A stretch of 64,000 nucleotides of DNA, from the NCBI GenBank assembly GCA_046713235.1, contig JBKKBZ010000116.1, forward strand, positions 2,742 to 66,741. Reading direction: 5' to 3'. Below are positions 12,033 to 39,545 of this stretch, one piece after another. Source of the DNA: Actinomycetota bacterium. GTDB lineage: Bacteria > Actinomycetota > AC-67. The notes under the pieces were generated by a model that had not been told where the DNA came from, searched no databases, and saw only the letters and a list, made by a program, of their open reading frames with translations. The stretch's first letter is position 1. Each line of letters begins with the position of its first letter. The position numbers were made by a program, and so were the translations under genes.

Positions 12033-12036
12033 CGGC

Positions 12037-16662: not shown

Positions 16663-16848
16663 GGTTTCACACCTCCAGGGAGAATCGTACTTCGCGGCTG
16701 TGACAGAACCTTATCCACCCGATCTGTATCCAGGCTTTTAAAGGAATAATTCTGTAGTAACAGTCGTAGGGGCTGGGGACGCTGTGGAGAATGCCACGCC
16801 TTTGGGGAATTCGGCCGTCCCCCGCTGTGCACGGTGTCGTGGATGACA
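16663..16848. other. oriC: candidate oriC core (dnaA-dnaN intergenic): DnaA-box-like 9-mers plus an AT-rich unwinding element
   Basis: TTATCCACC at 16711-16719, TGTGGAGAA at 16783-16791, GTGGATGA-type box at 16839-16847. GCTTTTAAAGGAATAATTCTGTAGTAACAG at about 16733-16764 is among the most AT-rich stretches of the window. Confidence 0.6.
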
Positions 16849-18225
16849 TCAGGCCGATTCCACCTGCTGCGCGGTTCTTCTTCGGATTCTCGCCGTCAAC
16901 TCTTGGACCTGTGAATAGATTTGGCGGTGCTCGCCCATCAGCTTTCGGATCTTGCCATCGGCGTGCAAAACCGTGGTGTGGTCTCGTCCGCCGAAGATCT
17001 CGCCTAGCTTCGGAAGGGACAGCGGGGTCAGCTCCCGGCACAGGTACATGGCCACCTGCCGGGCCAGTACGATCGGGCGCTGGCGCGACGGACCCAGGAG
17101 ATCGCCGCGCGAGATGCCGAAGAACGAAACGCATTCCGCGATAACGACGTCGGGCCGGATCTCGCTGGCGCCCTCGGGAGCCAGCAGCGGGTTGAGAGCC
17201 TCTCGTGCCAGCTCCAGCGTCAGCGGCAGTCTCGACAGGGAGGACCACGATACGACCCGGATGAGCCGGCCCTCGAGCTCACGGATGTTGTTTTGCACGC
17301 GAGTCCCGATGAACTCGAGGACGTCATCGGGAACCTCGAAGCCTTCCGCCCGGGCCTTATTGTGGAGAATCGCCACCCGGGTTTCGAGATCAGGGGGCTG
17401 AACATCGGTGATAAGACCCCATTCGAAGCGGGTGCGCAGGCGATCCTCCAGCGAGGCGATGGCGCTCGGTGGCCGGTCGGAAGAGATGACTATCTGCCGG
17501 CCGTCGTTGTAGAGGGCGTTGAAGGTATGAAAGAACTCCTCTTGGGTGCGCTCACCGGTTGCCAGGAACTGGATATCGTCTACGAGCAGCACGTCGGTCT
17601 CGCGGTAACGCCGGCGGAACGCCGGCATCTTCTCCTCCCGCACGCCGCTGATGAACTCGTTCATGAATTGCTCGCTCGACACGTACCGCACGACCGCGGT
17701 CGGGTAGAGCGAACGGACGCAGTGTCCAATCGCGTGAAGCAAGTGGGTCTTTCCTAGACCGGCTCCCCCATAGATGAAGAGCGGGTTGTACGACCGGGCC
17801 GGTTGCTCGGCGACCGCCAGTGCCGCCGCGTGGGCGAACCGGTTCGAGGGACCGATCACGAACGTGTCGAAGCTGTATTTCGGAATGAGCTGCGAAGCTT
17901 CGGCGGCCGCGCGCAGTGGTGCCGGTACCGGGTCGGCCGGAGCGTCGAGGTCGAACACCTCCGGGGGCGCCGGCCGTGCGTCGACCGTGACCGATAGAGA
18001 AAGCGGCCTCTCCGCGGCAGCCTGCAGAGCCTCCGTGACTAGGCCTGCGTATCTTGTCTCCAGCCACTCCTTGGCGAACGCACTCGGGACTCCGAGGACG
18101 ATTTCGTCCCCGGAGAGGCTGAGCGGCCGGCTTCCTTCGATCCAGGTCTTGGCGCCGGGTGAGGGCAAGCGGTCACGCAGCGTCGCAAGGGTCCTCTGCC
18201 AAATTACGTCAAGTTCGTCGCCCAC
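16849..18225 (-). CDS. dnaA: chromosomal replication initiator DnaA
   Basis: ORF 16849..18399. Contains [15 protein letters not shown] (Walker A), LLVDDIQFL and a C-terminal HTH (DHTTVLHA). The preferred start GTG 18225 follows GGGAGG, though the 3-nt spacer to the GTG is short. The longer ORF would translate across a DnaA box (TTATCCACG 18248-18256). Confidence 0.93.
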
Positions 18226-25448: not shown

Positions 25449-26540
25449 CTAGGCAGGGACGGCGGACGAAGCGAATCGCCCGACGGCCTCCGCCAGCGCG
25501 CCGGCAAGCATGCGGCGGAACCTATCGTCGGCGAGTAGCGCCTCATCGGCCGGGCTCGTCAGGTAAGCGGGCTCGAGGTGAACCGCCGGCATGCGAGTCT
25601 CTCGCAAAATCGGCCACGTCTTGGCGTGCGTCCGGCCGTCGGTGAGGCCGAGCCCACACACGGCCGATTGGCAGAGATCGGCGAGTCTGGCTCCTACCTG
25701 AGACTCGAATCGCTCGTGTCCGTAGTAGAAGGTTGCCGATCCGCTCGCCGCCGAATCGGTGTGTGCCGCGGTGTGGATCGAAAGAAAGATGTCGGCGGAA
25801 AGGCGATTGGCAAGATGTGCCCGTTCCCGGTCGGTTGGGTTCGCCATGTCGTCACGCGTCAGGAACACCGATGCCCCGGAAACCGCGAGGCGTTCCTCGA
25901 GATGCCGGGCGACGGCATACACGCAGTCGGCTTCTGCCAGGCCGTCCGGACCCACATCTCCGCGGTCGGGACCGCCATGTCCCGGGTCGATCACTACGAC
26001 CAGCCCGGGCGTGCCGGCAAGACGGCGAAAGGACTCGCGCTCACGAATCGGCCCCACCTGAGGAACGGTTGGGTGAGCGAGATGGGGAAGGCCGGCCAGC
26101 GCGCGAACCGTCGATTCCCCGACGATCGCGTCGGGGGGGAGTCCGTAATTCTCCTGAAACTCGCGCAACGCAAGCGCGGTTCGGGGCCCGAGAATGCCGT
26201 CGACCCTGCCGGCGTCGAATCCGAGCGCGCTCAACCGCTCCTGAAGCTCCCGCACGTCGTCGCCGCGGATCTGTGGGGAACGCAGATACAGCGTGCGATC
26301 GCCCAGCCGCCAGGAGGCCTCCACTAGCTCGCGCCAGGTATCGGGACCGACGAGACCGTCTACGAGAAGACCTCGCGCTTGCTGGAAAGAGCTGACGGCT
26401 TGAGCCGTTCCGGAACCGAACGCCCGGCTCCCCTCGTCCTCGCCTACCGAATGGCCGAGAGCGATCAGCCGCTGCTGGATGTCGCGGACTGCTCGTCCTC
26501 GGGCTCCCGGTCCGATGACCATGGCGCTATCCTTCCCCAA
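25449..26540 (-). CDS. cwlM: CwlM-like N-acetylmuramoyl-L-alanine amidase (2x PG-binding domain plus Amidase_3), no signal peptide
   Basis: ORF 25449..26540. Two PG_binding_1 repeats (VRDIQQRLIALG...GPDTWRELV; VRELQERLSALGF...GPRTALALREFQ) are followed by VVIDPGHGGPD...FLSIHTAAH. Confidence 0.88.
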   Translation of the reverse strand: MGKDSAMVIGPGARGRAVRDIQQRLIALGHSVGEDEGSRAFGSGTAQAVSSFQQARGLLVDGLVGPDTWRELVEASWRLGDRTLYLRSPQIRGDDVRELQERLSALGFDAGRVDGILGPRTALALREFQENYGLPPDAIVGESTVRALAGLPHLAHPTVPQVGPIRERESFRRLAGTPGLVVVIDPGHGGPDRGDVGPDGLAEADCVYAVARHLEERLAVSGASVFLTRDDMANPTDRERAHLANRLSADIFLSIHTAAHTDSAASGSATFYYGHERFESQVGARLADLCQSAVCGLGLTDGRTHAKTWPILRETRMPAVHLEPAYLTSPADEALLADDRFRRMLAGALAEAVGRFASSAVPA

Positions 26541-26563
26541 TCGTCCCCTCGAAGCGAACTCCT

Positions 26564-26636
26564 GGAGTGGGCAGATCTCTGCTGTGGGGGTCTCGTCGTT
26601 GAGAGCACCGGCCGGGTTCGAATCCGTTCACCTCCA
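26564..26636 (+). pseudogene. decayed tRNA-like element (good 3' half, non-functional fold)
   Basis: A 73-nt stretch ends ...GGGTTCGAATCCGTTCACCTCCA-CAA, giving a T-loop, a 3' acceptor strand and a discriminator. The 5' strand GGAGTGG pairs at only 5 of 7 positions, and the T-stem, D-arm and anticodon arm do not fold. Confidence 0.35.
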
Positions 26637-26734
26637 CAACCGCTTCTGGCCTGCGCGTTTGAGAAATGCACCCCACCGGTTCGCGAACCGGCGCGCCTCG
26701 AGATCGGTTGCCGCGACTTGTGGGCTGGGCAGGG

Positions 26735-26950
26735 CTACCGAGCGTAGATGGCGGGCCGATAACGGGGGCGCGGAATCGGTCGCCCTTCCTCACGGGCTGC
26801 CGCGAGCCACGCTTCCTTCGCGCGGTTGACTTCCGCGACCGCCTCCTCGGGAGTCTTGCCGAAGGCGGAGCACGCCTCAAGGTCGGGGATGTCGGCGATG
26901 TAGCCGCCGTCCTCCTCGCTGTAGAAAACGTTGATGTGGTAGTCGCTCAC
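26735..26950 (-). CDS. hicB: type II antitoxin HicB
   Basis: ORF 26735..26950. Contains YHINVFYSEEDGGYIADIPDLEACSAFGKTPEEAVAEVNRAKEAWL, the HicB/UPF0150 fold signature. It overlaps hicA by 4 nt. Confidence 0.85.
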   Translation of the reverse strand: MSDYHINVFYSEEDGGYIADIPDLEACSAFGKTPEEAVAEVNRAKEAWLAAAREEGRPIPRPRYRPAIYAR

Positions 26951-27279
26951 CGGTCCTCCCTGAGCTTCAAAGCATACCGTTCAACGAGCTTCATGAGCTG
27001 ACGGACCTGGTAGGGCTTCGCCTGACCGCTCACCTCTTGGAGGTTGACGAGCTCCGAGAGGTCCGGATGGCCGTAGATGTGATGACTCCCTGAGACCCGC
27101 TTTCGCTCGAACCCAAAGGCCTCCACGAGCCGGGCAAGATCATCGAACGAGACGTTCTTCACCGATCCTCGGGCTACGCGGCGAAGGAGCTTGCGAGGAT
27201 CCACGAGAACCACCCTATCGGGGACCGCCGTCACAATACCGAGGTCGCCGTTCGTGTGGACCGCGACCGCTGAGTCCAT
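26947..27279 (-). CDS. hicA: type II toxin HicA (mRNA interferase)
   Basis: ORF 26947..27279. Contains LARLVEAFGFERKRVSGSHHIYGHP...KPYQVRQLMKLVE. A shorter start at GTG 27204, preceded by AGGGTGG, would give the usual size of about 85 aa. Confidence 0.82.
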   Translation of the reverse strand: MDSAVAVHTNGDLGIVTAVPDRVVLVDPRKLLRRVARGSVKNVSFDDLARLVEAFGFERKRVSGSHHIYGHPDLSELVNLQEVSGQAKPYQVRQLMKLVERYALKLREDR

Positions 27280-27452
27280 CTTGGAGAAGGTCGCGCGGGG
27301 TCGCGTGGCCCTCGCACAAACCGCCGGTTAAACATGAGACACCACACTAGGGAAGCCCCGAGTTCAGCCCGCCCTCCCGCGCCGAGGGGAGCGTTGCGGA
27401 CGCCCCGTAGCCCGGCAACGGGCTCAACTCGCGTGGATCGGTCGGGATTGTT

Positions 27453-27479
27453 GTGGCACTCGACCAACTGGTCGGCCAC
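27453..27479 (-). terminator. hairpin immediately downstream of trxA
   Basis: GTGGC-act-CGACC-aact-GGTCG-GCCAC begins 6 nt after the trxA stop. There is no U-tract. Confidence 0.35.
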
Positions 27480-27484
27480 CTCGG

Positions 27485-27814
27485 TTAGGTGATGAATTCC
27501 TGGAGTTCGCCGAGGATCTGGGCCTTGCCTCGGGCGCCGACCACGCGGCGCTTTTCGACCCCATCCACGAAGAGCAGCATGGAGGGGATCGACATGATCC
27601 CGTAGCGCATCGAGGTTTGGGGGTTTGAGTCCACGTCGAGCTTGACGATGGTCAGGTTCCCCTGCTTTTCCTGGGCGATTTCCTCAAGGACCGGGGCCAC
27701 CATATGGCATGGCCCGCACCAGTCCGCCCAGAAGTCGACGAGGACGGGCGTACCGGCCTTGAGAACCTTCTCCTCGAAATCCGAATCGGTGACTTGGATG
27801 ATTGGGCCGCTCAT
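27485..27814 (-). CDS. trxA: thioredoxin
   Basis: ORF 27485..27814, 109 aa, active site WADWCGPC. Confidence 0.95.
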   Translation of the reverse strand: MSGPIIQVTDSDFEEKVLKAGTPVLVDFWADWCGPCHMVAPVLEEIAQEKQGNLTIVKLDVDSNPQTSMRYGIMSIPSMLLFVDGVEKRRVVGARGKAQILGELQEFIT

Positions 27815-27902
27815 GGTGGGAATCCTCCGTGTCGATGGTCGTCAGAGTCTAATACCGAGCCTCGACGCCCGAAACGTCGTCCCGGCTCCGCCTATTCCCG
27901 GC

Positions 27903-29036
27903 TCAGATCGCTTGCCCGTGCGCCTCGATGCGCCCGAGGTCCAGCTCCACACCGAGCCCCGGCTTGGCCGGAAGAGCTATCGTTCCGTCTGCGTCTACTC
28001 GAAACGGTTCGGCGAGCATCGCGTCGCGCCCTTCGGGGACCCATCCCGGCGGGTCGTAGGGGAACTCTATGAGCGCGCCGTTCGTCGCGGCGAGCACATG
28101 AAGATTCGCGGCGAAACCGAGCCCGTTGGACCAGGCGTGCGGCATGAATCCGATGCCGAACTGCTCGGCCGTACGTGCTAGGGACAGCGCCCCGGCAATG
28201 CCACCGCTGACCGTCGCGTCCGGCTGGATGATGTCGACCGCGCGGCGCTCAATCAGCTCCCGCACCGGCCAGATGTCCCCGGCAAACTCCCCCCCGGCGA
28301 TGGGGGTGGTCGTCTGGTCGCGCAGGCGACGGTAGCCTTCGAAATCGAACTGATCCAGCGGTTCCTCCAGCCAGGCGACCCCGTACTCCTCGTACGCGCG
28401 AGCGGTCGCGAGGGCCCGTTTGAAATCCCACCGCGGTCCCTGTGCGAAGACGTCGACGCGCCATCCCTGGTTGGCGTCGGCGGCGACGCCGAACTCGTCG
28501 CCGACCGCTTCTCGGACGGTGCGCACCTCGTCGACGTCCTCACGCATGGACTCGTGGCGCGGCCGGAGCTTCACGCAGCGAAAGCCGGCCTCCCGGGCGG
28601 CCAGCGCGTCGTCGGCTCGCCGCTTGGCCTCCCGCATCTCCCCGAACGACGCGTACGCCGGGACCCGGTCGCGTGTACCGCCGAGGTAGCGATACAACGG
28701 CAAGCCGGCCGCTTTCGCGGCGAGGTCGTAGAGCGCCGTCTCGATGAACCACACGCGCAGGCCCAGCGCGCGAACGGCGGCCTCGAGGATAGGACGCAGC
28801 TCCGCGGGTCGCGATGGGTCGCGCCCGATGAGGAAGGCGCGCATGAGATTCACCGGACCACGCGGCTCGTCGGCGAACGCCACCCACCCCGCGTAGCCCT
28901 CGAGGCCATCGTCGGTGACCAGGCGATAGACCACGCATGAGTTGTTGGGATTGGCGAGGCCGGGGATCCACGCCGGCGAGAAAGGCGCCGGAAGCGGGAA
29001 ATGGCATATCCATGCGTCGATGCGGTCGATCTTCAT
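27903..29036 (-). CDS. enolase-superfamily enzyme (mandelate racemase/muconate lactonizing family)
   Basis: ORF 27903..29036. Has an N-terminal capping domain, metal-ligand regions ADANQGW, LEEP and IQPD, and a barrel-end HAWSNGLG. Confidence 0.8.
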   Translation of the reverse strand: MKIDRIDAWICHFPLPAPFSPAWIPGLANPNNSCVVYRLVTDDGLEGYAGWVAFADEPRGPVNLMRAFLIGRDPSRPAELRPILEAAVRALGLRVWFIETALYDLAAKAAGLPLYRYLGGTRDRVPAYASFGEMREAKRRADDALAAREAGFRCVKLRPRHESMREDVDEVRTVREAVGDEFGVAADANQGWRVDVFAQGPRWDFKRALATARAYEEYGVAWLEEPLDQFDFEGYRRLRDQTTTPIAGGEFAGDIWPVRELIERRAVDIIQPDATVSGGIAGALSLARTAEQFGIGFMPHAWSNGLGFAANLHVLAATNGALIEFPYDPPGWVPEGRDAMLAEPFRVDADGTIALPAKPGLGVELDLGRIEAHGQAI

Positions 29037-29120: not shown

Positions 29121-29402
29121 GTGCCCCGCTATCTTCGTTGGATTGCCGCGGCGACGAGTGCCGTGATGGTGCAGTTCGCGTTCTTCGTAGGCGTCGGCGC
29201 GGTAGCGGTTGGAACCGGGAACAAGGAGCTGTCGGGAGGGATCGGGCTGTTGGTTACGCTCGGCTCGACGCTGGTGCCCGTTCTCGTGGCGCTTGCAGTC
29301 AACGATTGGCTTGCCCGCCGCTACCCGGCCACGGCGCAAGAGTCTTCTGAAACCGGGGCGGCCGGGCGACTCGCGCCGGTCGAGCCGTCAGTGCCCGAGT
29401 GA
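29121..29402 (+). CDS. possible small membrane protein (2 TM)
   Basis: In-frame GTG 29121 of ORF 29001..29402 gives VPRYLRWIAAATSAVMVQFAFFVGVGAVAV...LLVTLGSTLVPVLVALAV. The 3' end overlaps the trxB 3' end convergently by 15 nt. Confidence 0.35.
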   Translation: MPRYLRWIAAATSAVMVQFAFFVGVGAVAVGTGNKELSGGIGLLVTLGSTLVPVLVALAVNDWLARRYPATAQESSETGAAGRLAPVEPSVPE

Positions 29403-30314
29403 CTCGAGGTAGCGCTCGGCGTCGATAGCCGCCTGACACCCCATGCCGGCAGCGGTCACGGCCTGGCGGTAGATGTGATCGACAACGTCGCCGCACGCAA
29501 AGACACCCTCCACGCTGGTCGCCATGCGCGGGTGCGCGACCCGGATGTATCCCTCCGCGTTCATCTCGAGCTGGCCTGCGAAAAGCGTGCTGTTGGGGTC
29601 GTGACCGATGGCCACGAAGAGACCCCCGGTCTCGAGGTCGGTGGTGTCGCCCGTTTTCACGTGCCGGAGCCGCAGCCGGTCGACTTTGCCGTTTCCCCCG
29701 AGGACGTCCTCGACAACGGTGTCCCAGATGAAATCGACCTTGGGGTTGGCAAAGGCGCGCTCCTGCATGATCTTCGATGCGCGTAGCTCGTGGCGCCGGT
29801 GCACTACGGTGACCTTGGTTGCAAACCGGGTTAGGAACACAGCCTCTTCGACGGCCGAGTCTCCCCCGCCGGCGACGACGAGCGGAACACCTCGGAAGAA
29901 GAAGCCGTCGCAGGTGGCGCAGGTCGAAACCCCGCGGCCCAGGTACTCGCGCTCGCCTGGAACACCCAGCATCCGGGCGCGCGCGCCCGTGGAGACGATG
30001 AGCGTTTTCCCTTCGTAGGTCGCGTCGCCCGACTCAACGACGAAGGGACGTGTCCCGAGATCCACCCGAGTGGCGTCGGCGGTGATGAACTTGGCACCAA
30101 ACCGCTCCGCCTGCGCGCGGAACTTTTCCATCAGCTCGGGGCCGAGTATGCCGTCGGGGAAGCCGGGATAGTTCTCTACCTCGGTCGTCAGCATCAGCTG
30201 TCCGAGGGGTGTGGCGCCCTCGATGACCAGCGGGTCGAGCTGCGCGCGGGCCGCGTACAGCGCGGCGGTGAGGCCGGCCGGCCCAGAGCCGACGATTATG
30301 ACGTTCTCGGACAT
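29388..30314 (-). CDS. trxB: thioredoxin-disulfide reductase
   Basis: ORF 29388..30314. Contains GSGPAGLTAA (FAD), CATCDG (redox centre) and GGGDSAVEEA (NADPH). Confidence 0.96.
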   Translation of the reverse strand: MSENVIIVGSGPAGLTAALYAARAQLDPLVIEGATPLGQLMLTTEVENYPGFPDGILGPELMEKFRAQAERFGAKFITADATRVDLGTRPFVVESGDATYEGKTLIVSTGARARMLGVPGEREYLGRGVSTCATCDGFFFRGVPLVVAGGGDSAVEEAVFLTRFATKVTVVHRRHELRASKIMQERAFANPKVDFIWDTVVEDVLGGNGKVDRLRLRHVKTGDTTDLETGGLFVAIGHDPNSTLFAGQLEMNAEGYIRVAHPRMATSVEGVFACGDVVDHIYRQAVTAAGMGCQAAIDAERYLESLGH

Positions 30315-30388
30315 ACGAACCTCGCACGTGGGAAGGAAGTCCGAGGATTCTAACGCAGGGGCTTACCCGCCTCTTCCGTGATCCCGGC

Positions 30389-31177
30389 CTAGATCGGGCG
30401 TTGCGCCCAGTAGAGAGTGAAGCAATCCGACGGACGAAGGACCCAGACTTCGGCCCTCGTCGGGCTGCCCTTGGGCGCGACGAAGAAGAGCACGTAGGCT
30501 TCGCGACCTTCGAACGTCGCGACCTCGTAGCGCTGGGGATCAAGCGGCGCATCGGCTCCACGGACGACGTCCTCGGCGCATTCGAGCAGCCCGGGTGGAG
30601 CCGTTGTAAAGGCCGTCCCTGTTTCGTATTCACCCGAGGCGGGACTAGGTATTAGCGTGTCCTTCGAGGTGCTTCTTGCGGTTCCCCTCTCGGTGGACCC
30701 GTCCACGGCAACGGTGCCGAACGCGGCCAGCTCGGCCGAGGCTGAAGCCCGGTCGTAGGTGCGTCCGGCGAGCACGGTGACCTGCTGATCCGAGGCTCCG
30801 GAGGTGTTCTCCCGGAGTGCCGAGTTGCCTCCCTGTCGAGAGACGTCGCGCAGGCTGAGCAGTCCGATCGCCAGCAATCCGGCTGCCGCCGCACCGGCGG
30901 CCCATCCCCAGCGGCGGGTCGCTTTGCTGCGCGCGGGGGAGACGACCGCGAGGCGACGTGCCTCGGCGACCCGGTCGGTGATGAAGGCTGCGGAGACCTC
31001 ATCGAGCGCCACCGGCTCGAGGGAACGCAGGTCGCCGACCGTCGCCCGCAGCGCCTCCAGGGTGCGGCGGCACTCCGCGCACTCGGGGAGGTGATCGTCG
31101 ATGCCGGCGCGGTCGGCGGCGTCGAGCTCTCCGTCGAGATAGGCGGAGAGCAGGTCGAGCTGGTCGTGTTTACTCAT
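30389..31177 (-). CDS. membrane-anchored zinc-binding (ZAS, HxxxCxxC) anti-sigma factor
   Basis: ATG 31177 of ORF 30389..31258 gives MSKHDQLDLLSAYLDGELDAADRAGIDDHLPECAECRRTL. One TM segment (WGWAAGAAAAGLLAIGLL) precedes an extracytoplasmic domain. The start overlaps the sigma gene stop (ATGAGTAA). Confidence 0.82.
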   Translation of the reverse strand: MSKHDQLDLLSAYLDGELDAADRAGIDDHLPECAECRRTLEALRATVGDLRSLEPVALDEVSAAFITDRVAEARRLAVVSPARSKATRRWGWAAGAAAAGLLAIGLLSLRDVSRQGGNSALRENTSGASDQQVTVLAGRTYDRASASAELAAFGTVAVDGSTERGTARSTSKDTLIPSPASGEYETGTAFTTAPPGLLECAEDVVRGADAPLDPQRYEVATFEGREAYVLFFVAPKGSPTRAEVWVLRPSDCFTLYWAQRPI

Positions 31178-31769
31178 CGGGTCTCGCCACCTTAGAGGGT
31201 TCTTCCTCCCCCTCGGGTTCCAAGTGCCCGAGAATACGTGCCAATTCGAGCCGGGCACGATGGAGGCGGCTCTTTACCGTCCCGATCGGAATTTTCAAGG
31301 CAAAGGCGACTTCGGAGTAGTCCAGGTCCTCGAGGTCGTGAAGAACGACGACTGCCCGGTGATCCGGGCTCAGCGAGGCGACGCCTCGGCGGACGGCTTG
31401 GGCGCGGTGCGCTGCCAGGGCCAGTTCCTCCGGCCCGGGGCCGGCATCGGCCGTCTCGGGAACGTCGTCGAGCGCAGCGTGGTCGCGCCGGCTGCGGCGG
31501 CGACCGAGGTCCACGGCTGCGTTCACGGCAAGCCGGTGAAGCCAGGTGGTCAGTTTCGCCTCGCCGCGGAACGACCCCAGCGAGCGATAGGCCGTCACGA
31601 ACACTTCCTGGGCCACGTCGAGGGCGTCCTCGTGACGCCCGCACACGCGAAGCGCCACCGCGTACACCCGCGTGCGGTGGCGGGAGACGATCTCATCGAA
31701 GGCGGCAGTTTCCCCGGCGAGATGCCGCCGGACCAGCTCGGGGTCGGTCGCGCGGGTGGGGTCGGTCAT
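31170..31769 (-). CDS. ECF-type RNA polymerase sigma factor (SigM-position)
   Basis: ORF 31170..31769. Region 2 reads DALDVAQEVFVTAYRSL...TWLHRLAVNAAVD; region 4 reads DLDYSEVAFALKIPIGTVKSRLHRAR. Confidence 0.9.
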   Translation of the reverse strand: MTDPTRATDPELVRRHLAGETAAFDEIVSRHRTRVYAVALRVCGRHEDALDVAQEVFVTAYRSLGSFRGEAKLTTWLHRLAVNAAVDLGRRRSRRDHAALDDVPETADAGPGPEELALAAHRAQAVRRGVASLSPDHRAVVVLHDLEDLDYSEVAFALKIPIGTVKSRLHRARLELARILGHLEPEGEEEPSKVARPDE

Positions 31770-31776
31770 CGACGCC

Positions 31777-32943
31777 TCAGCCGCCGTCGTTCACGTATAC
31801 CCGCTCGATGTGGGAGCCCACGAGCAGGCGGCGGGCCTCGATGCGCACGACGTCTCCCACGGCCACTCCCGGAACGTCGCCGACATCGACGGTTGCTTGC
31901 TGCATCGAGATTCGTCCGACGACGGGCGCCCGTCCGCCGCGTACCGTAACCGCGCGCGGGGACGAGCGACGGCCGGCGACGATCGCCGCGACGCGCAAGC
32001 CGGCTCGCGCCGCTTCCGACCAGGATTCGGTTCGGGCGGCAGGCTCGAGGCCGAATCCGTCGGCGTATCCGACCGGGATGGTGGCAACTCGCGTCGGCCG
32101 CCCGGCGCGCCACTCGCTCCCGTACCCGACACCTTCGCCGGTTGCGACCGTTCGCAGGCTGACGATGCGTGCGAACCAAGAGAACGGATCCTCCAGCGGC
32201 ATCGGTGCGCGAACGTGCGGAGGATCGAGACCGTATAGGAGCGTTCCCACGCGCACCATGTCGTAGCGCGCCTCCGGGTGGGCAATCGTCGCCGCGGAGT
32301 TTGCCGCATGGAGGATGGTCCGGGCGGCTCTCTTTCCCAGCGCCGTCCGGACGCGCTCGAAGGCCGCGATCTGAGGAGAGGCCGACGCGGTCCCGGCGGC
32401 CGCGAAGTGGGTCCAGATACCTTCGAGCGAAATGTGGTCATCCCCGGCCGCCCGGCCGGCAACGACCACCGCGTCGTTGGGCGAAACCCCCAGGCGTCCC
32501 ATTCCGGTGTTGACCTTCATGTGGACATGCGCGCGCTTCCCGCCGGCCTCGGCGGCAGCCGAGATGGGACCGAGATCTTCGGATGAGGCGACGCATAGGG
32601 TGAGGTCGAGGGCGATCGCGTCGCGGATCAGGTCTGCCGGAATCGGAGTGAGCAGCAGGACGGGCGTGGAGATCCCCGCTGTGCGGAGCTCGCGTGCCTC
32701 TTCCCATCGGGTGACCGCGAGCATGCGAGCCCCGGCGTCGGCCAACGTGCGCGCGACGGCAACGAGCCCGTGGCCGTAAGCGTTGGCCTTCACCACGGCG
32801 CACACGGGAACGCCGGCGTGTGCCGCAACGGCCGCAAAGTTGTTGCGTATGGCGTCGAGCGAGATCTCGATCCACGTGGACGCACCCCGGGGGATCCGCC
32901 CGGCATCACCGGGAGATCCAAGGTCAGTCGGCGAGCGAGCCAC
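31777..32943 (-). CDS. alr: alanine racemase
   Basis: ORF 31777..32943. PLP-lysine motif AVVKANAYGHG, plus PVGYADG and a C-terminal beta domain. Confidence 0.92.
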   Translation of the reverse strand: MARSPTDLGSPGDAGRIPRGASTWIEISLDAIRNNFAAVAAHAGVPVCAVVKANAYGHGLVAVARTLADAGARMLAVTRWEEARELRTAGISTPVLLLTPIPADLIRDAIALDLTLCVASSEDLGPISAAAEAGGKRAHVHMKVNTGMGRLGVSPNDAVVVAGRAAGDDHISLEGIWTHFAAAGTASASPQIAAFERVRTALGKRAARTILHAANSAATIAHPEARYDMVRVGTLLYGLDPPHVRAPMPLEDPFSWFARIVSLRTVATGEGVGYGSEWRAGRPTRVATIPVGYADGFGLEPAARTESWSEAARAGLRVAAIVAGRRSSPRAVTVRGGRAPVVGRISMQQATVDVGDVPGVAVGDVVRIEARRLLVGSHIERVYVNDGG

Positions 32944-34012
32944 CGCTGCCTCGCAGAGCCTTGAGCGCTCTCATTGCCACCGGCGCACCGTATCGCCATC
33001 CTCGGTACATCACCGAACGCAGCGGGAGGTCCAGCTCGCCGACGTACTCCACGTAGCGCGCGCCGAACCCGGCCTTGAACCGATTCAGCCCGGCAAGGTG
33101 CTCTTCGGTCGGCTTGCCGTTACGCATGGGCGACACCCCGCGAAAATCGTAGGTCTGAAAGCCTCGGTCGTGCGCCCAGCGGATCATCGTCCACTGGAGC
33201 AGATGATTCGGCATGACGTTGCGATCCCGGCTCGACGAGGCGCCGTAGGTATACGTCGCGCGAGACCCGAACGTGAGCAGCATCGCCCCGGCGATCGCGC
33301 GACCCTCGTACCGCGCGAGGAACATCGCGAGCCGGCCGGCCGGCGTCAGGACGTCGACCAGGCGCTCGAAGTACTCGCGGCCGCGAATGAGGAAATGGTC
33401 CCTGCGCGCCGTCTCGAGCAGCAGGTCGTAGAAGACCGGAAGTTCGTCTCGTCCGGCCTCGGAAACTTCCACTCCCTTTCGCTCGGCCAGCCGGATGTTG
33501 TACTTCCATTTCTTGTGGAACCCTTCGTGCACGCTGTCGATGCCGGGGGCGAGATCGAGGACCATGACCGCGCGCGGTTGTACGCCACCGAATCGTCCCG
33601 CCCCCGACGGACGAAAACCTGCGGCCGCCAGGGCACCCGCTTCCGCGATGCCCATCGGAATCGGAGGATCACACTTCAAGAGGATTGCCTTTCCCGCTCG
33701 CCGCTCGACCTCGGCAAGTATTGCCCCAAGAGCCTCTGGTTGCCGGTAATCGAGCACCGGGCCACGCGGACAGTACAGAATCGGAGGCGCCCCACGAACC
33801 GGTCTCGTTTCCAGAACCTGAGCCGCTGCGACGATCCCGTGGCCGCCTTGGACGAGGATCCGATGGGGGACCCAGCCGCCGGTGCGCTTGACCTCCCCCC
33901 AGGCGAAGGATTGGAGAACGTCGGCGAAGGGCGAGCGCGCAACGAAGTCGTCGTAGAGATCCCTCTCGTGCTCGCCGGCGATGCGGGGCCGCAAGGCCCC
34001 TGAGTCGATCAA
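32924..34012 (-). CDS. FemAB-family peptidoglycan branch peptidyltransferase (aminoacyl-tRNA dependent family)
   Basis: ORF 32924..34222. Contains FLQSFAWGEVK-like SFAWGEVKRTGGW, KKWKYNIRLAERKGV, and YTYGASSSRDRNVMPNHLLQWTMIRWAHDRGFQTYDFRG. The preferred start TTG 34012 overlaps the pseudokinase stop (TTGA). Confidence 0.8.
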   Translation of the reverse strand: MIDSGALRPRIAGEHERDLYDDFVARSPFADVLQSFAWGEVKRTGGWVPHRILVQGGHGIVAAAQVLETRPVRGAPPILYCPRGPVLDYRQPEALGAILAEVERRAGKAILLKCDPPIPMGIAEAGALAAAGFRPSGAGRFGGVQPRAVMVLDLAPGIDSVHEGFHKKWKYNIRLAERKGVEVSEAGRDELPVFYDLLLETARRDHFLIRGREYFERLVDVLTPAGRLAMFLARYEGRAIAGAMLLTFGSRATYTYGASSSRDRNVMPNHLLQWTMIRWAHDRGFQTYDFRGVSPMRNGKPTEEHLAGLNRFKAGFGARYVEYVGELDLPLRSVMYRGWRYGAPVAMRALKALRGSGGSLAD

Positions 34013-35397
34013 CCTGCCGCCTCGAATGTGATTTCGGCGACGGCGGCCTGGAACGGGAGGTTGCTTCCCGAGCCGGCGTTGGCAAGCTCCGTTATCCACA
34101 GCAGCCAGTAACGACCCTGGTTTTCCCCGGACGGCTTCACCGCGCCGTCGGAGCTGGCCGTAAACGACGCGACGACCCTGTAGTCGGCCGCAGACCCTCC
34201 GGCCGCGCCGGAGACTCGCCATTCACCACGCCAGCCGGCGATGGGGCTGCGCAGACGGATCGTATCGACGCGCACGTTGGCTCCGAGATCGAAGAGCAGG
34301 CCGACGCCGGGCTTGGAGCCGCCGAGGTTTGCCGACGCGTAGCCCACAGTCGTCCATGCGCTGGTGGCGTCACCGTCGAGAACCAGCGCTACCTTTTCGG
34401 GGTGTTCGCTGCCGTTTCCGGGATTCGGGTCGAAGTCCCGGACGGCTGCCACGGATAGCGCCCCCCGGGGCGAAGGGGAAGGGGATGCCGCGCCCTCGCG
34501 TCGCTGGGGAAGGAGCTTCGCAACGGTCAAGCCGGCGACGATCGCCCCGGCCGCGACGCCGAGGAACAACAAGAGCGCGAGCAACCACCGGCCCTCCGTT
34601 CGCAGGTAGCCCGGCTCCCGAGCGGCCGGCGGTGCCTTGGGGGCTGCGAACGGCTCGACTGCGTCGAGAAAGCTCGGCAGGTCCGAGTGCCCACCGAGAG
34701 CGCGTTCGACGGCCGAAGCGAGTTCCGCAGTCACCCCGCGCGATCCTGTCAGGGAGGTGCCCGGTGTGTTGGGCGGGCGGCCGGTGAGCATGTGGACGGT
34801 GAGAGCGGCCAGTGCCCGAAGGTCTGCCTCTGCCGGCTCCTTCGGATCGGGACCTGGGTACCCCTCCGGCTGTACCGGTGGATCGGCCGGCTCTCCTCGC
34901 GCTCCTCCGGCAAGCATCGCAACCTCCACCAGGCCGGGTCCGAGCAGCTTGGCTCGGCCTTCCTCGTCGAATGCCACCCAGGCCGGACCGATGGCGCCGT
35001 GCGTCCGCCCCGCTTGATGAAGGACCCGGAGCGCGGCCCCGACACTGGATGCCACCCGCGCCGCCTCGGCAACCGGGAGCGTGCCGTCGCGCAGCCGCTC
35101 GGCGAGCCGCCCGCCCGTCGGGTGCTCGGTGACCAGGTACGGCGGATCGTCGCCGCAGTCGTAGATCTGCACCAGACGCCGGTCGACGAGCTGGGCGTCC
35201 CGTGCGGCGATGCGCAGAAGCGCCTCGCGGGTCCCGGCATCGCCGGCAACATCGGGACCCAGCATGTGAACGAGCACCGGCCGGTTCAGGACGGTGTCGC
35301 GCGCCTCCCAAACCGGCCCGGCCGGCGCCGGCCACGCCAGACGTTCCACGCGGTAACGCCCCGCGATCACGGTGCCGGTTCGCACGACGTCTTTCAT
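34009..35397 (-). CDS. membrane-spanning pseudokinase (degenerate Ser/Thr kinase fold) with an extracellular discoidin/F5-8-type-C-like domain
   Basis: ORF 34009..35397 has a Hanks-kinase-like layout with the catalytic motifs lost. The G-loop reads AWPAPAGPV, VAIK reads VLVHM, HRD reads GRTHGAIGP, and DFG reads LLGPG. One TM segment (WLLALLLFLGVAAGAIVAGL) follows. The C-terminal domain reads DGDATSAWTT...YWLLWITEL. Confidence 0.8.
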   Translation of the reverse strand: MKDVVRTGTVIAGRYRVERLAWPAPAGPVWEARDTVLNRPVLVHMLGPDVAGDAGTREALLRIAARDAQLVDRRLVQIYDCGDDPPYLVTEHPTGGRLAERLRDGTLPVAEAARVASSVGAALRVLHQAGRTHGAIGPAWVAFDEEGRAKLLGPGLVEVAMLAGGARGEPADPPVQPEGYPGPDPKEPAEADLRALAALTVHMLTGRPPNTPGTSLTGSRGVTAELASAVERALGGHSDLPSFLDAVEPFAAPKAPPAAREPGYLRTEGRWLLALLLFLGVAAGAIVAGLTVAKLLPQRREGAASPSPSPRGALSVAAVRDFDPNPGNGSEHPEKVALVLDGDATSAWTTVGYASANLGGSKPGVGLLFDLGANVRVDTIRLRSPIAGWRGEWRVSGAAGGSAADYRVVASFTASSDGAVKPSGENQGRYWLLWITELANAGSGSNLPFQAAVAEITFEAAG

Positions 35398-35444
35398 TTG
35401 GATAAACGCACCCTCCCAGCGCGGCGGGTAATGTCGAGAGACGG

Positions 35445-35834
35445 TCAGACGGAAAATGCTCGCGCGCTCGAACGCACCCTGACGAACCTCCTGAGTGGTC
35501 CGATTCGGTGAATGAAGAGGGTCTTGGCCTCCCTGGCTACGGTGACATTGACCCGCTCCTGGCCGCCTGCTCCTGCGTCGTCCGCAGAGAACCCGACGAG
35601 AACGGATCCCTCTCGGCGGACGATCTTCTCGGCTTCCGCACGTGCCGCCCGAACGTCGCGCGAATGCGCGAAAACGCCGACTGCCTCCTGGGCGGCGGTT
35701 CGGGAGGCGTTGTCCGCGCCGACGTTGGCGATCACGATTGCCGCGCCCTCAAAGAGCAGCACGCCGGCGACGGCCAGCCCGACGAATACCCGAAGGAACC
35801 ATCCGATGAGGATGCCGCCGCGCTCGCCGCTCAC
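35445..35834 (-). CDS. membrane-anchored hypothetical protein (N-terminal TM, TadE-like topology)
   Basis: ORF 35445..35834. The start overlaps the murJ stop by 4 nt. N-terminus reads ERGGILIGWFLRVFVGLAVAGVLLF. Confidence 0.6.
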   Translation of the reverse strand: MSGERGGILIGWFLRVFVGLAVAGVLLFEGAAIVIANVGADNASRTAAQEAVGVFAHSRDVRAARAEAEKIVRREGSVLVGFSADDAGAGGQERVNVTVAREAKTLFIHRIGPLRRFVRVRSSARAFSV

Positions 35835-37513
35835 ACCCTCGATCCTCGCACGAAACGCGCGAGTACGGTGCGAACCAGGGGGCGCGACTCCTCCATGCGC
35901 AGCAGCACGGCAAGTCCGGCATAGACGGCGATCCCGGACGCCACACCCGCCGCAACCTCCAGCATCTGCCCGGAGAGCGCGGTCGTATCGACGGCATCGG
36001 CCACTGCGCGCGAAGCGGCCCAGGCCACCGCTCCGGTCGCGGCGGACGCACCGAGAATCTTGGCGTGGCTTACGGCCACCCGGCGCCCGTCGATGCCGCC
36101 CAGCTTGCGCCGGAGAATCGCACCACCGATCACCGCGGCCAGGAGGTACGACGCGGCGTGCCCCAGGGCGAGACCCGGGACGCCCAGCGCGGCAAACAGC
36201 GGGAAGTTGACCACGATGTTGAACGCGGTCGACCAGAAGTTGATCAGCCAGGGCGTCCTCGTATCCTGCCGGGCATAGAGCGCTCGCGTTTGCTGTTGAA
36301 ACACGGCGAAGCCACCGAGTCCGAGCGCCATGAACGCGAGCGTGTCGGCTAAGAGTTCCGTGGATCCCCGCGAGAACACCCCATGCTCGAGAAGGAGCCT
36401 GACGATGGGCGTGGCGAGGGCGACGAACCCGGCCGCGGCCGGCAGCACGACGAAGGAGGTCATGCGCGTGCCGGTGGAGAGGTCCCGGATGAAGCTCGTC
36501 CTGTCGCCCCGTACGTGATGCGCCGAGAGCGCCGGGATCAGGGCTGTGAAGACGCTAACCGCAAAGATGCCGTACGGCAGCTGATACAGCGCGTAGGCGC
36601 CTAGAAACGCCGTCACCCCGCCGTTCACTCGGTTCGCCAGGGCGAAAACCATCCAGAGCCCGACCTGATTGATCGCGACGAAGGCAAGCGAGTACTTGGC
36701 GAGATGCCCGACGCGGCGGACGGCGGGATGTCGCCACTCCCACGCACGGAAGCTGTACCGGCCGGGCAGTTGACGAATGTACGGCCACAAGATGAGCGTC
36801 ATCACGACGACCCCCAGCGTCGTCCCCCCTCCCAACAAGAGCTTGTCGGCCGTCGTCAGATCGGTGAGCTGGAGGATCCCTTCCGGGTTCTTGATCCGGA
36901 AGGCAACAAACGTGGCCGCGACGATCACGTTGTTCAAGACCGGAGCAAACATCGGCGGCGCGAAACGCCGGTGTGCCGTGAGGAGGCCCGTCAGCACGGC
37001 GCCTGCGGCGTAGAAGATCATTTGGGGCATCAACAGCCGCAGCAGAAACGCACCGATTTCGTTCTGCTGGGAGCGCAAAGGCTCGGGCGCGCGGAAGGTG
37101 TACATCCGGATAAGCCAGGGAGCGGCGAGCACCGTCACGACGACCAGTGCCGCGGCCGCCACCACCGCAAGATTGAGAATCGTTGAGGCCAGCCGCCAGG
37201 ACTCGTCACGGTCCCGCGTGGTGAGATACTCGACGAAGACCGGAACGAAAACGGTTGCGAGAATCTCTCCCAGGATCAGTTGGTACACGACGTTGGGTAG
37301 GTTGTTTGCCAGGTTGTACGTGTCGGGGACCTTCGATTCGACCCCTCCGATTGCCCAGGCCATCACCGAAAGCCGCACGAAGCCGGTCGCCCGGGACAGC
37401 GTGGTGCCGACGCTCATCACTGCGGTCGCCCTCGTTAGCGAGATTCCGGCGTGCAGGTCCGGGGCCTCCGGGGCGGCAGGCTCGGGCGCGGCCGGGCGAT
37501 CCGCTTCGCTCAC
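35831..37513 (-). CDS. murJ: lipid II flippase MurJ (MviN)
   Basis: ORF 35831..37513, 560 aa, 14 TM-type profile. Contains TLSRATGFVR...AFVPVFVEY...YALYQLPYGIF. Confidence 0.92.
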   Translation of the reverse strand: MSEADRPAAPEPAAPEAPDLHAGISLTRATAVMSVGTTLSRATGFVRLSVMAWAIGGVESKVPDTYNLANNLPNVVYQLILGEILATVFVPVFVEYLTTRDRDESWRLASTILNLAVVAAAALVVVTVLAAPWLIRMYTFRAPEPLRSQQNEIGAFLLRLLMPQMIFYAAGAVLTGLLTAHRRFAPPMFAPVLNNVIVAATFVAFRIKNPEGILQLTDLTTADKLLLGGGTTLGVVVMTLILWPYIRQLPGRYSFRAWEWRHPAVRRVGHLAKYSLAFVAINQVGLWMVFALANRVNGGVTAFLGAYALYQLPYGIFAVSVFTALIPALSAHHVRGDRTSFIRDLSTGTRMTSFVVLPAAAGFVALATPIVRLLLEHGVFSRGSTELLADTLAFMALGLGGFAVFQQQTRALYARQDTRTPWLINFWSTAFNIVVNFPLFAALGVPGLALGHAASYLLAAVIGGAILRRKLGGIDGRRVAVSHAKILGASAATGAVAWAASRAVADAVDTTALSGQMLEVAAGVASGIAVYAGLAVLLRMEESRPLVRTVLARFVRGSRV

Positions 37514-39504
37514 ACCGGGGCCCGGTTCCGCGAGCGGCTACGCAGCGCCCTGCGCATCCACGTGAGGAAGAGCGCAATCGCTCCGCCGAGGGTGATGATG
37601 AGCGTCACCGCACTAACGCGAGTCGAGCGCACGACCAGCTCGCTCTGCCCGACGGGGGCGCCGTCGAGGGTCTCCAATCGCACGACGACGGGGAAGGATC
37701 CGCTGACCCGTGTCTCTGCTTGGAACGTCATGGTGAAGACCCGCTGGGCCACCGTCACGTTGCGGCTCGCGCCTCTCGGGAAGCGCATTTTCGTCGAATC
37801 GAGCGTGACCCGCACGCGCACCGGTTGACCGGTGCCGTTGACGAGCGTGACCGGAATCTGAGCGATTCGCGATGTCAGGGTCACCCGGCGCTCCGGCACC
37901 CTGATCAAGTCCAGTGTGCGCTCGGCGCGCCCCCGTGCAGCACGTGCGAGGATCGAACCCCGAGAGGGATCGGCGATCCAGTCCGCGGACTGGGCCGCCA
38001 GGATGAGACGCTCCAGAAGCTCGACCGGCCTCTCGGGCTCGAGCACCCGTACGAGTGTGTCCACGGCCCGACGAGCCGCGCGAGCAGCAGACAGCGCCGG
38101 CCGGTCGGGGTCCGTGGAGCTGTCGAGAGCGAGTACCTTGTCGGTTGGGGGGAGCGCGGATGCGGCTTGGGTGGCGGTGAGAAGGCGGACCCATGGAGCG
38201 CCTGCCAGCGCGTCGAGAAGCGCGCCTGCTGCAGCCGAGTCGGGCGACGTCGGGGTGCCGACAACGAGCAATCGCTCGGAGGCAAGCGCCGGGAGCTCGA
38301 AGAACGAAGCGGCGGTCTCTGCCACCACGCCCTGCGCGGCCAGGACCGGATCGCGCCTGCTGCTCAATCGGTCGCGAATGGCGGGATCGACGACCAGGCC
38401 CGTCAGTCGAACCTGATTTCCGCCGGCTAGTGCTTGGGGGCGATCGAATCCGAAGTTCGTCAGGCTTTGGGGGAGGGACTCGGGCGCGATGGCCACCACC
38501 CGGGCACCAGTCGCGGCGATCGCGCCGGCCGAGCGCTTGTCGAGACGGAAATCCGGGGGCACGAACAGTCCCGGCGTGGCCGGGCGCCCGAGCAACCGCC
38601 GGATGCGCTCATCTTCGGAAGAGAGTTGCAGGCTCAGCTCGCTCTGCATCCGGTTCGACAGCAACCCGATGATGTCGGCGCGGGAATAGGTCGAAGAAGC
38701 CAGGTCGATTGCCGGCGACCCCACCGCGCGGCGGAGGGCGGCGAGCGCCCGACGCGCTCCCACCGCGGTCGGGTCGCCGGGATGCACGGCGCGCCTGCCG
38801 CCGGCCGGGTAGCCGTCCCCGGCGTCGTCGAGCTGGTCGAGCGTCAGTCCGGTCGGCGCGATCGTGACCGGAGCGCTGGGGCGGGAAGCAAGTGCCTCGA
38901 TCACCGCCCGGAGACCTGCTCCCGGCGCCAGGTGGCGCTCGATCGTTCCGGATGGGTAGACGCCGCGGGCATCGAATGCGGCCGGCAGATGAACCGGGTA
39001 GATCCACGCGACGTTCAGCCGGCTTGACGGCGGCGTGAAGAAGAACGGCACAGCCGTTGTCGCGTGGGCCAGGTCCCGGCCACCGGATATAAGGCGCACC
39101 GACACGGGATACACACCATCGCGGCCCTGGGCGCGAAACGTCCCGGCAAGGGTACCGAGATCCCGGGTCAGGGTTCGGACCCGGCGCTCCCCGGAGACGA
39201 GCGGTTCGACTTGGTCTGTCGTTACAACGAGAACATCACCCCCGGGGTTGCCGTCGAGGGCCGCACGAAGCTCCGATCGCGAGAAAACCCGGTTGTGCAC
39301 GGAGATTCTGATCGTGAGATCCTCGAGCGGGATGGATCCGGGGTTCGTGAGCGCGAACGTCACGCTCAGCAGGCGATCCTGACCGACGAAGGGGGAAACC
39401 CCCAGGAGCGTGAACCCGGGGTCCCGGTCTTGGGCAAGTCCGGATCCGGGAAGTGTCCCCAGGAGGAGTCCGAGCGCGAGGAGAGCGGCGCGTACGATCC
39501 GCAC
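37510..39504 (-). CDS. large secreted/anchored protein, Rv3909-like (DUF6049-type)
   Basis: ORF 37510..39504. Signal peptide MRIVRAALLALGLLLGTLPGSGLA and a C-terminal TM (VTLIITLGGAIALFLTW). It overlaps the murJ start by 4 nt and holds the conserved position upstream of murJ. Confidence 0.65.
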   Translation of the reverse strand: MRIVRAALLALGLLLGTLPGSGLAQDRDPGFTLLGVSPFVGQDRLLSVTFALTNPGSIPLEDLTIRISVHNRVFSRSELRAALDGNPGGDVLVVTTDQVEPLVSGERRVRTLTRDLGTLAGTFRAQGRDGVYPVSVRLISGGRDLAHATTAVPFFFTPPSSRLNVAWIYPVHLPAAFDARGVYPSGTIERHLAPGAGLRAVIEALASRPSAPVTIAPTGLTLDQLDDAGDGYPAGGRRAVHPGDPTAVGARRALAALRRAVGSPAIDLASSTYSRADIIGLLSNRMQSELSLQLSSEDERIRRLLGRPATPGLFVPPDFRLDKRSAGAIAATGARVVAIAPESLPQSLTNFGFDRPQALAGGNQVRLTGLVVDPAIRDRLSSRRDPVLAAQGVVAETAASFFELPALASERLLVVGTPTSPDSAAAGALLDALAGAPWVRLLTATQAASALPPTDKVLALDSSTDPDRPALSAARAARRAVDTLVRVLEPERPVELLERLILAAQSADWIADPSRGSILARAARGRAERTLDLIRVPERRVTLTSRIAQIPVTLVNGTGQPVRVRVTLDSTKMRFPRGASRNVTVAQRVFTMTFQAETRVSGSFPVVVRLETLDGAPVGQSELVVRSTRVSAVTLIITLGGAIALFLTWMRRALRSRSRNRAPV

Positions 39505-39545
39505 GGCAGCGCGATGCTAGCATCCCGGACGGAAGGGGGAAGCCA

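Follow-up and report, generated by a model that had tools for sequence, protein, structure and literature searches.

In Mycobacterium tuberculosis, the genes Rv3909–Rv3915 (Rv3907c–Rv3915 if the wider cluster is counted) lie near oriC, next to parAB, gidB and dnaA. The cluster contains a MurJ-associated pseudokinase that carries an extracellular domain, an extracytoplasmic function (ECF) sigma factor gene followed by that of an anti-sigma factor (SigM and RsmA), genes for thioredoxin reductase and thioredoxin with SigH-type promoters (TrxB2 and TrxC; PMC4105308), and CwlM, which has two peptidoglycan-binding repeats and an amidase domain. Both MviN and CwlM of M. tuberculosis are peptidoglycan factors regulated by PknB (PMC5845002, PMC11898655). 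Here we describe a cluster of the same families in the same order, with the same neighbours and domain features and with predicted SigH-type promoters before trxB and trx, from an Actinomycetota bacterium of the GTDB lineage AC-67. It lies in a stretch of 64,000 nucleotides (nt) of assembly GCA_046713235.1 (contig JBKKBZ010000116.1, positions 2,742 to 66,741), which is referred to below as the window. The M. tuberculosis cluster is likened to it through its known genes, the sequence of that cluster itself lying outside the loci compared here. The backbone is already known as a textbook origin-proximal actinobacterial cluster, and the window holds a clade-specific variant of limited novelty.

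In the window the cluster takes the form of a compact minus-strand array of nine genes, running from a DUF6049 gene through murJ, a small membrane protein gene, a pseudokinase gene, femX (FemAB family), alr, a SigM-like sigma factor gene and its anti-sigma gene to trxB. We read it, with a probability of about 0.6, as a conserved oriC-proximal cell wall and thiol-redox cluster consisting of an eight-gene operon and a separately regulated trxB. According to this proposal the first eight genes, from DUF6049 to the anti-sigma gene, would be co-transcribed as one unit, with leaderless initiation at an extended −10, sigma-A-type promoter immediately upstream of DUF6049. The sigma factor and anti-sigma factor, having no promoter of their own, would be produced in fixed proportion to the products of the peptidoglycan-precursor genes. 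Translation of sigma would be coupled to that of alr, and translation of the anti-sigma factor to that of sigma, while the activity of the sigma factor would be set post-translationally by its membrane-bound, zinc-binding anti-sigma (ZAS) partner. Finally, trxB and the downstream trx would be separately inducible from SigH/SigR-type ECF promoters, read by a sigma factor of the corresponding kind.

Layout and conservation of the array

All nine open reading frames (ORFs) open at the coordinates given by the first-pass annotation of this DNA, all eight of its junction distances were reproduced, and the identities that it had assigned to the genes are supported by Pfam and NCBIfam matches (Table 1). 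As read from the sequence, the DUF6049 gene overlaps murJ by 4 nt (GTGA) and murJ overlaps the small membrane protein gene by a further 4 nt. A gap of 47 nt precedes the pseudokinase gene, which overlaps femX by 4 nt (TTGA), and femX in turn overlaps alr by 20 nt. Only 7 nt separate alr from the sigma gene, the sigma and anti-sigma genes overlap by 8 nt (ATGAGTAA), and 74 nt lie between the anti-sigma gene and trxB.

The comparison covered 80 genome loci found with a pseudokinase profile and six contigs found through exact proteins (labelled L001 onwards), in which twelve window proteins were placed by tblastn. The backbone DUF6049–murJ–(small membrane protein)–pseudokinase–sigma–(anti-sigma)–trxB–(trx)–cwlM occurs across diverse Actinomycetota, in about 70 loci, with DUF6049 as its opening gene in about 60 loci and cwlM as its last member in about 45. 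The presence of femX and alr between the pseudokinase and sigma genes is confined to the window, L001–L011 and L084–L086, a clade of Actinomycetota represented only by metagenome-assembled genomes (MAGs). Both genes are missing from about 70 other loci, including those of Mycobacteriales MAGs, in agreement with the earlier remark that the backbone of M. tuberculosis lacks them. Three of the clade contigs (L084–L086) were reached via FemX homologues with 55–60% identity, and the placement of femX and alr is the same in 3/3; L086 has no pseudokinase gene, yet it keeps the order femX–alr–sigma. The juxtaposition is therefore not a peculiarity of this genome: on the available sequences it is a conserved hallmark of one MAG-only clade and not a general feature. 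It may represent an insertion in the clade or an ancestral state that was lost elsewhere. At least 11 independent loci of relatives share this gene order and have almost no spacing between the genes, so the compact geometry cannot be put down to chance.

Proposed transcription of the first eight genes

A conserved leaderless-type extended −10, TGCTAGCAT, is found 9 nt ahead of the DUF6049 start codon. The palindrome at this site, GGATGCTAGCATCG, occurs once in the 64-kb window, and the background rate of the extended −10 TGNTANNNT is 0.13 per kb. At DUF6049 the element stands 7–9 nt ahead of the start codon, both in the window and in L001, L002, L005, L007, L008 and L009, and TAGCAT variants of it are found in L006, L085 and L086. 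A short distance from extended −10 to start codon is the geometry of leaderless actinobacterial promoters, and we propose that the palindrome is a leaderless sigma-A-type promoter of the array, possibly a bidirectional one that also serves the divergent TauE gene. A second element, TGATA[C/G]CAT followed by 7–9 nt and an ATG, precedes murJ in 9/11 relatives. It was seen at the DUF6049/murJ gap of L001 (7861–7884), L002, L005, L007–L009, L084 and L085, and is missing from the window (37510–37513) and from L086, where DUF6049 and murJ overlap by 4 nt. Ahead of the small membrane protein, pseudokinase, femX, sigma and anti-sigma genes there is no extended −10 in any clade locus, and ahead of alr there is a single one, in L006. 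Taken with the conserved overlaps, this lack of promoter-like motifs inside the array makes a single operon plausible. Generic scans, which are poorly suited to actinobacterial DNA of 66% GC, gave a number of terminators at chance level (8 found, 7.3 expected) and 0 sigma-70 promoter sites, and RNA folding of the array junctions revealed no convincing terminator.

The first-pass annotation had pointed out that the sigma gene has essentially no room for a promoter of its own, and indeed none can be recognised. The ECF-type motif GGAA-N17-20-GTT, sought from −250 to +10 of each gene in all loci, precedes sigma in 4/72 loci, none of them belonging to the clade, as against 49/63 for trxB. Neither GGAAC-type motifs, corresponding to the −35 of mycobacterial SigM, nor generic GAAC-N-CGT motifs are enriched upstream of sigma. 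The 3′ end of alr, where an internal ECF-type promoter had been thought worth seeking, showed no such motif, and in the clade loci the last 240 nt of alr are conserved at the level of codons only, with no conserved non-coding block. The sigma gene thus probably has no promoter of its own, as far as motifs and conservation can tell.

The attachment of sigma to the preceding gene is equally characteristic. Of the 11 distinct loci of the clade, 9 have a 4-nt overlap between the end of alr and the start of sigma; the distance is +5 in L010 and +7 in the window, where the sigma gene has its own GAGG ribosome-binding site in the 7-nt gap instead of an overlap. Where femX and alr are missing, it is the pseudokinase gene that sigma overlaps in most loci, by 4, 8 or 11 nt. 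It follows that the tight coupling, and with it the lack of room for a sigma promoter, was not created by the arrival of femX and alr. Judged from these gene boundaries, coupling of sigma to the preceding gene is the ancestral and widespread state of the cluster, and the overlap would have been re-established with alr after the putative insertion.

Several observations weigh against transcription of the first eight genes as one unit from the head of the array. Extra DNA interrupts the array of L006 twice, once between the pseudokinase gene and femX (11333–12526, ~1.2 kb) and once upstream of trxB, after the anti-sigma gene (16032–17637, ~1.6 kb), so strict contiguity cannot be obligatory. Promoter content also varies among clade members, since the window is without the murJ-proximal element that most of its relatives carry, and the palindrome upstream of DUF6049 could serve as an operator, either in place of a −10 element or in addition to one. 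Sigma-A promoters of high-GC actinobacteria are weakly defined, and an internal one without an extended −10 could escape the scans. Moreover, the sigM gene of Corynebacterium glutamicum is reported to be transcribed under SigH control (PMC3489674, PMC4105308), which means that a separate sigM promoter exists in at least one actinobacterium.

The last of these points also speaks for what we regard as the best of the alternatives, albeit an unlikely one, namely that the sigma/anti-sigma pair has an unrecognised promoter of its own inside alr or femX. In that case transcription of the murJ operon would have little bearing on the dosage of the pair, and the tight junction would be a matter of genome compaction. 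In actinobacteria a promoter often lies within the gene upstream, GGAA-N-GTT is found 40 nt before sigma in a few loci (L037, L051), and the separate ribosome-binding site of the window sigma gene would suit such an arrangement. Set against this are the clade loci themselves, which have neither an ECF-type motif nor an extended −10 upstream of sigma, share no non-coding block at the 3′ end of alr and largely retain the 4-nt alr/sigma overlap.

femX and alr within the proposed unit

The femX product belongs to the FemAB family (Pfam FemAB, 171.5 bits against a cut-off of 24), and its closest solved structures are FemX of Staphylococcus aureus (6snr, 2.8e-44) and of Weissella (1ne9, 4.5e-26), whereas its score with the FemX equivalog model NF047883 is 122.9 bits against a cut-off of 500. 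The alr product passes the TIGR00492 cut-off (262.1 bits against 168) and has the pyridoxal phosphate-lysine motif VVKANAYGHG in its translation. The GTG at 32943 is the sole in-frame start ahead of the conserved Alr domain, and the starts of both genes are consistent with the gene calls in related contigs. The Pfam and TIGRFAM models match the C-terminal domain of Alr in two stretches, on either side of ~30 extra residues (about 298–330) that interrupt it, and a DNA alignment shows that the extra segment is conserved among clade relatives.

Recruitment of femX and alr to the same unit predicts a branched peptidoglycan and the joint expression of its precursor supply, its precursor export and a stress sensor. 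A doubtful alternative is that their placement has no regulatory meaning, being a neutral, lineage-fixed rearrangement in an operon that was already compact, with the adjacency to sigma merely historical. The restriction of femX and alr to one clade would fit such a history, as would the other lineage-specific insertions nearby (the enolase-superfamily gene, a peptidase M1 gene in L085, HicB in the window and the extra DNA of L006). In addition, the mycobacterial SigM regulon consists of ESX-4 and not of cell wall synthesis genes (PMC13491425), so that any functional link between this sigma factor and peptidoglycan is hypothetical. Neutrality is less easily reconciled with the retention of the femX–alr–sigma order and of the 4-nt overlap among relatives that share only about 40% pseudokinase identity with the window, or with the survival of femX–alr–sigma in L086 despite loss of the pseudokinase. 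It also leaves aside that FemX and Alr, like MurJ, act in the peptidoglycan precursor pathway.

Probable separate control of trxB and trx

The thioredoxin reductase gene differs from the eight genes upstream of it. It had been taken as a passive ninth member of the array, a view that is not supported, given that the 74-nt gap before it carries a conserved motif of SigH/SigR type. The position of this element is the same in every locus of the clade, with a −10-like hexamer (TAGAAT) overlapping its 3′ end. Across the loci compared, GGAA-N17-20-GTT is found upstream of trxB at the frequency given above and upstream of trx in 20/29 loci. The corresponding figures are 1/81 for the pseudokinase gene, 2/61 for DUF6049, 0/8 for alr and 1/10 for femX; for most other cluster genes the motif is present in no more than 5% of loci, and its background rate is about 0.18 per kb. 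Judged by the motif (GGAA(T/C)-N18-GTT), by its conserved position and by the adjacent thiol-redox gene, trxB and trx would each have a promoter of SigH/SigR type. The predicted ECF-type promoter of trx is followed, at 27820–27860 of the window and in relatives, by another conserved −10-like sequence (TTAGACT or TGATAGACT). By analogy with S. coelicolor trxBA, the upstream region of trx suggests tandem ECF and housekeeping promoters.

No SigR or SigH homologue is encoded within the window. The proposed regulation matches the control of trxB in Streptomyces, Mycobacterium and Corynebacterium: trxBp1 of Streptomyces coelicolor is SigR-dependent (PMC4921905), the targets of SigH in M. tuberculosis include trxB2 and trxC, and those of SigM in C. 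glutamicum include trxB and trxC (PMC4105308). That all nine genes should form one read-through operon, with thioredoxin reductase slaved to murJ transcription, is highly improbable. Some read-through is plausible, as the genes share a strand, the gap is short and a check of the stretch from the anti-sigma gene to trxB showed no intrinsic terminator. But this gap is always the largest of the array (57–91 nt), every locus of the clade has the GGAAG-N18-GTT/TAGAAT arrangement, and in model actinobacteria trxB is among the classic targets of SigR, SigH and SigM (PMC4921905, PMC4105308).

Proteins encoded by the array

The sigma factor has the sigma-2 (63 bits) and sigma-4 (53 bits) domains alone, as befits an ECF (group 4) sigma factor, and scores 94.5 bits with TIGR02937 against a cut-off of 42.9. 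Its best NCBIfam model is SigM (NF007225), with a score of 152.5 bits that falls under the cut-off of 190 for the mycobacterial SigM/ECF27 equivalog. Its position is nonetheless that of SigM, between the MviN pseudokinase and anti-sigma/TrxB, as in about 72 loci that include Mycobacteriales MAGs. An ORF at 57393–58367 (minus strand) of the window has weak similarity (E 0.13) to an ECF sigma query, and may encode another sigma-70 family protein. The anti-sigma factor matches zf-HC2 (38.1 bits against a cut-off of 22.2), has the H-x3-C-x2-C motif HLPECAEC and one hydrophobic span, and is encoded directly downstream of sigma; the zinc motif together with this position marks it as a ZAS protein. 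Its orthologue in L084 matches Pfam RsmA_C, a domain that was not detected in the window protein even at E=5.

The kinase-like protein was assessed through a family profile built from 27 homologues, which matches PknA and PknB at E about 1e-28 (PknA 4.7e-28). The catalytic lysine, the aspartate of HRD and the aspartate of DFG are all substituted throughout the 27 homologues, and in the alignment of the profile with PknA, VAVK is replaced by VlvqtL, HRD by aHG and DFG by gag. The kinase-like domain of these proteins is followed by a transmembrane helix and then by a well-conserved extracellular domain, which in one homologue gives an F5/8-type-C match. By these residues and this architecture the protein is a genuine pseudokinase of the MviN type. 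Its mycobacterial counterpart is the C-terminal half of MviN/Rv3910; here it has a gene of its own. The solved pseudokinase domain of M. tuberculosis MviN is not among the top PDB matches. MviN of M. tuberculosis is phosphorylated by PknB and recruits FhaA (PMC5845002, PMC11898655).

Of the remaining products, MurJ passes the TIGR01695 equivalog cut-off (284.1 bits against 235.55) and TrxB that of TIGR01292 (394.8 bits against 343.45). The small membrane protein encoded between murJ and the pseudokinase gene has no Pfam match in the window, and its weak match to the TadE-like model TIGR03816 (E 6e-4) is under the cut-off. It is 125–140 aa long across loci and is kept in L086, which has no pseudokinase.

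Table 1. Features of the cluster in the window, listed in the direction of the minus strand (nt, nucleotides; aa, amino acids)
Feature	Coordinates	Strand	Basis
Palindrome ATGCTAGCAT, extended −10-like element (TGcTAGCAT)	39514..39523	−	Ends 9 nt before DUF6049 GTG
DUF6049 protein, Rv3909-like by position, signal peptide, 664 aa	37510..39504	−	Pfam PF19516, E 1.3e-24
murJ, lipid II flippase, 560 aa	35831..37513	−	TIGR01695; Pfam MurJ 1.3e-82
Small membrane protein, 129 aa	35445..35834	−	Homologues at same position in about 28 loci
Membrane-anchored pseudokinase with conserved extracellular C-terminal domain	34009..35397	−	Kinase-fold profile match
femX-type peptidoglycan branch transferase, FemAB family, 362 aa, TTG start at 34012	32924..34012	−	Pfam FemAB 3.5e-50
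alr, alanine racemase, 388 aa, GTG start at 32943	31777..32943	−	TIGR00492
SigM-like ECF sigma factor, 199 aa	31170..31769	−	Sigma70_r2 and Sigma70_r4_2
Membrane-spanning ZAS anti-sigma factor, RsmA-like by position, 262 aa	30389..31177	−	zf-HC2
Predicted ECF-type promoter, SigH/SigR class, GGAAG-N18-GTT	30352..30377	−	In 74-nt gap before trxB
trxB, thioredoxin reductase, 308 aa	29388..30314	−	TIGR01292; CATC redox motif in translation
Conserved small membrane protein, about 93 aa	29121..29402	+	Convergent with trxB, 15-nt overlap of trxB 3′ end
Enolase-superfamily (MR_MLE) enzyme	27903..29036	−	Pfam MR_MLE_C 1.2e-59
Predicted ECF-type promoter before trx, GGAAT-N18-GTT	27873..27898	−	Followed by TAGACT −10-like element
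trx, thioredoxin	27485..27814	−	TIGR01068 119 bits against 97; Pfam Thioredoxin 2.2e-30
CwlM-like protein, two PG_binding_1 repeats and Amidase_3	25449..26540	−	Pfam

Genes beyond the array

The first-pass annotation had bounded the array at 29388. As the end of the nine-gene run this boundary stands, but it is not the functional end of the cluster, beyond which lie the convergent gene, the enolase-superfamily gene, trx and cwlM. The convergent small membrane protein gene ends the minus-strand run and aligns with opposite-strand ORFs of 86–94 aa in L001, L002 and L084–L086; it was found in every clade locus examined. The enolase-superfamily gene is located between trxB and trx only in the clade that has femX and alr. 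Assignment of its product as an L-Ala-D/L-Glu epimerase, which would have tied it to peptidoglycan as well, was considered and rejected, as the NCBIfam models place it nearer to acid-sugar dehydratases, with all scores far under the cut-offs. Between trx and cwlM in the window (26541–27484) there are small ORFs and an ORF for a HicB/UPF0150-like antitoxin (26735–26950, minus strand), while the trx–cwlM distance is only about 20–110 nt in relatives such as L001, L002 and L084. From its gene content, this region looks like a window-specific insertion of a toxin–antitoxin system into the conserved cluster.

The genes gyrA, gyrB, recF, dnaA, yidC, gidB, parA and parB are found a few kilobases from the array, and on its other side are TauE, a T2SSE ATPase gene and a CCA/poly(A) polymerase gene (pcnA). 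The presence of dnaA, gyrBA, recF, yidC, gidB, parAB and pcnA in the neighbourhood indicates that the array lies near the replication origin.

Implications and comparison with known systems

Beyond the clade, the gene boundaries make it plausible that a SigM-type sigma factor is in general expressed along with the MurJ operon, as its passenger, and lacks autoregulation. We hold a more far-reaching version only tentatively, and consider it unlikely as it stands: that across the Actinomycetota overlaps of start and stop codons tie a SigM-type pair firmly to the operon of the lipid II flippase, without an autoregulatory promoter, such that a membrane sensor would be made in proportion to the peptidoglycan export machinery, a branch transferase and D-Ala supply having been captured as well in the present clade. 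If this were true, SigM/RsmA would act as an inbuilt sensor of the flux of peptidoglycan precursors or of the thiol state of the envelope, and not as a conventional self-amplifying stress switch. In the literature searched we found no explicit description of an mviN–sigM operon, nor any statement that the start codon of a SigM-type sigma gene is fused to the preceding cell wall gene without an ECF autoregulatory promoter. The near-universal fusion of this start codon to a preceding cell wall gene bears on the poorly understood role of SigM.

Compared with the M. tuberculosis cluster, the window encodes MurJ and the pseudokinase as separate genes with a small membrane protein gene between them, whereas the two are fused in Rv3910. 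Unlike that cluster, the window has femX and alr before the sigma gene, its trxB and trx are separated by the convergent small membrane protein gene and the enolase-superfamily gene, and its sigma factor scores under the NCBIfam cut-off for SigM. The sigM–trxB–trxC–cwlM region of C. glutamicum, which belongs with the SigH/SigM disulfide-stress network, is similar in having an ECF sigma gene beside trxB and trxC, with ECF-type promoters there (PMC4105308), but sigM of that organism is reported to be activated by SigH (PMC3489674), and no such motif precedes the window sigma gene.

The femX product shows full-length FemAB-fold homology to the FemX proteins of S. aureus, a lipid II:glycine glycyltransferase, and Weissella viridescens, a UDP-MurNAc-pentapeptide:L-Ala transferase. 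It differs from them in being encoded inside a murJ–sigma operon and in scoring under the FemX equivalog cut-off (123 bits against 500).

For S. coelicolor, the consensus of promoters of the SigR–RsrA system, which Paget and colleagues reportedly described in 2001, is GGAAT-N18-GTT. The elements before trxB (GGAAG-N18-GTT) and trx (GGAAT-N18-GTT) in the window share the hexamer core and spacing of the SigR-dependent trxBp1 (PMC4921905). The sigma/anti-sigma pair of the window is nevertheless unlike SigR–RsrA, in that the sigma factor is SigM-like and the anti-sigma factor spans the membrane, whereas RsrA is soluble. In Bacillus subtilis, sigma-M is an ECF sigma factor tied to the synthesis and export of peptidoglycan precursors, and it controls cell wall genes. 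The two sigma factors belong to unrelated groups, and the logic of the window appears to be the opposite, with the sigma gene carried as a passenger of the cell wall operon.

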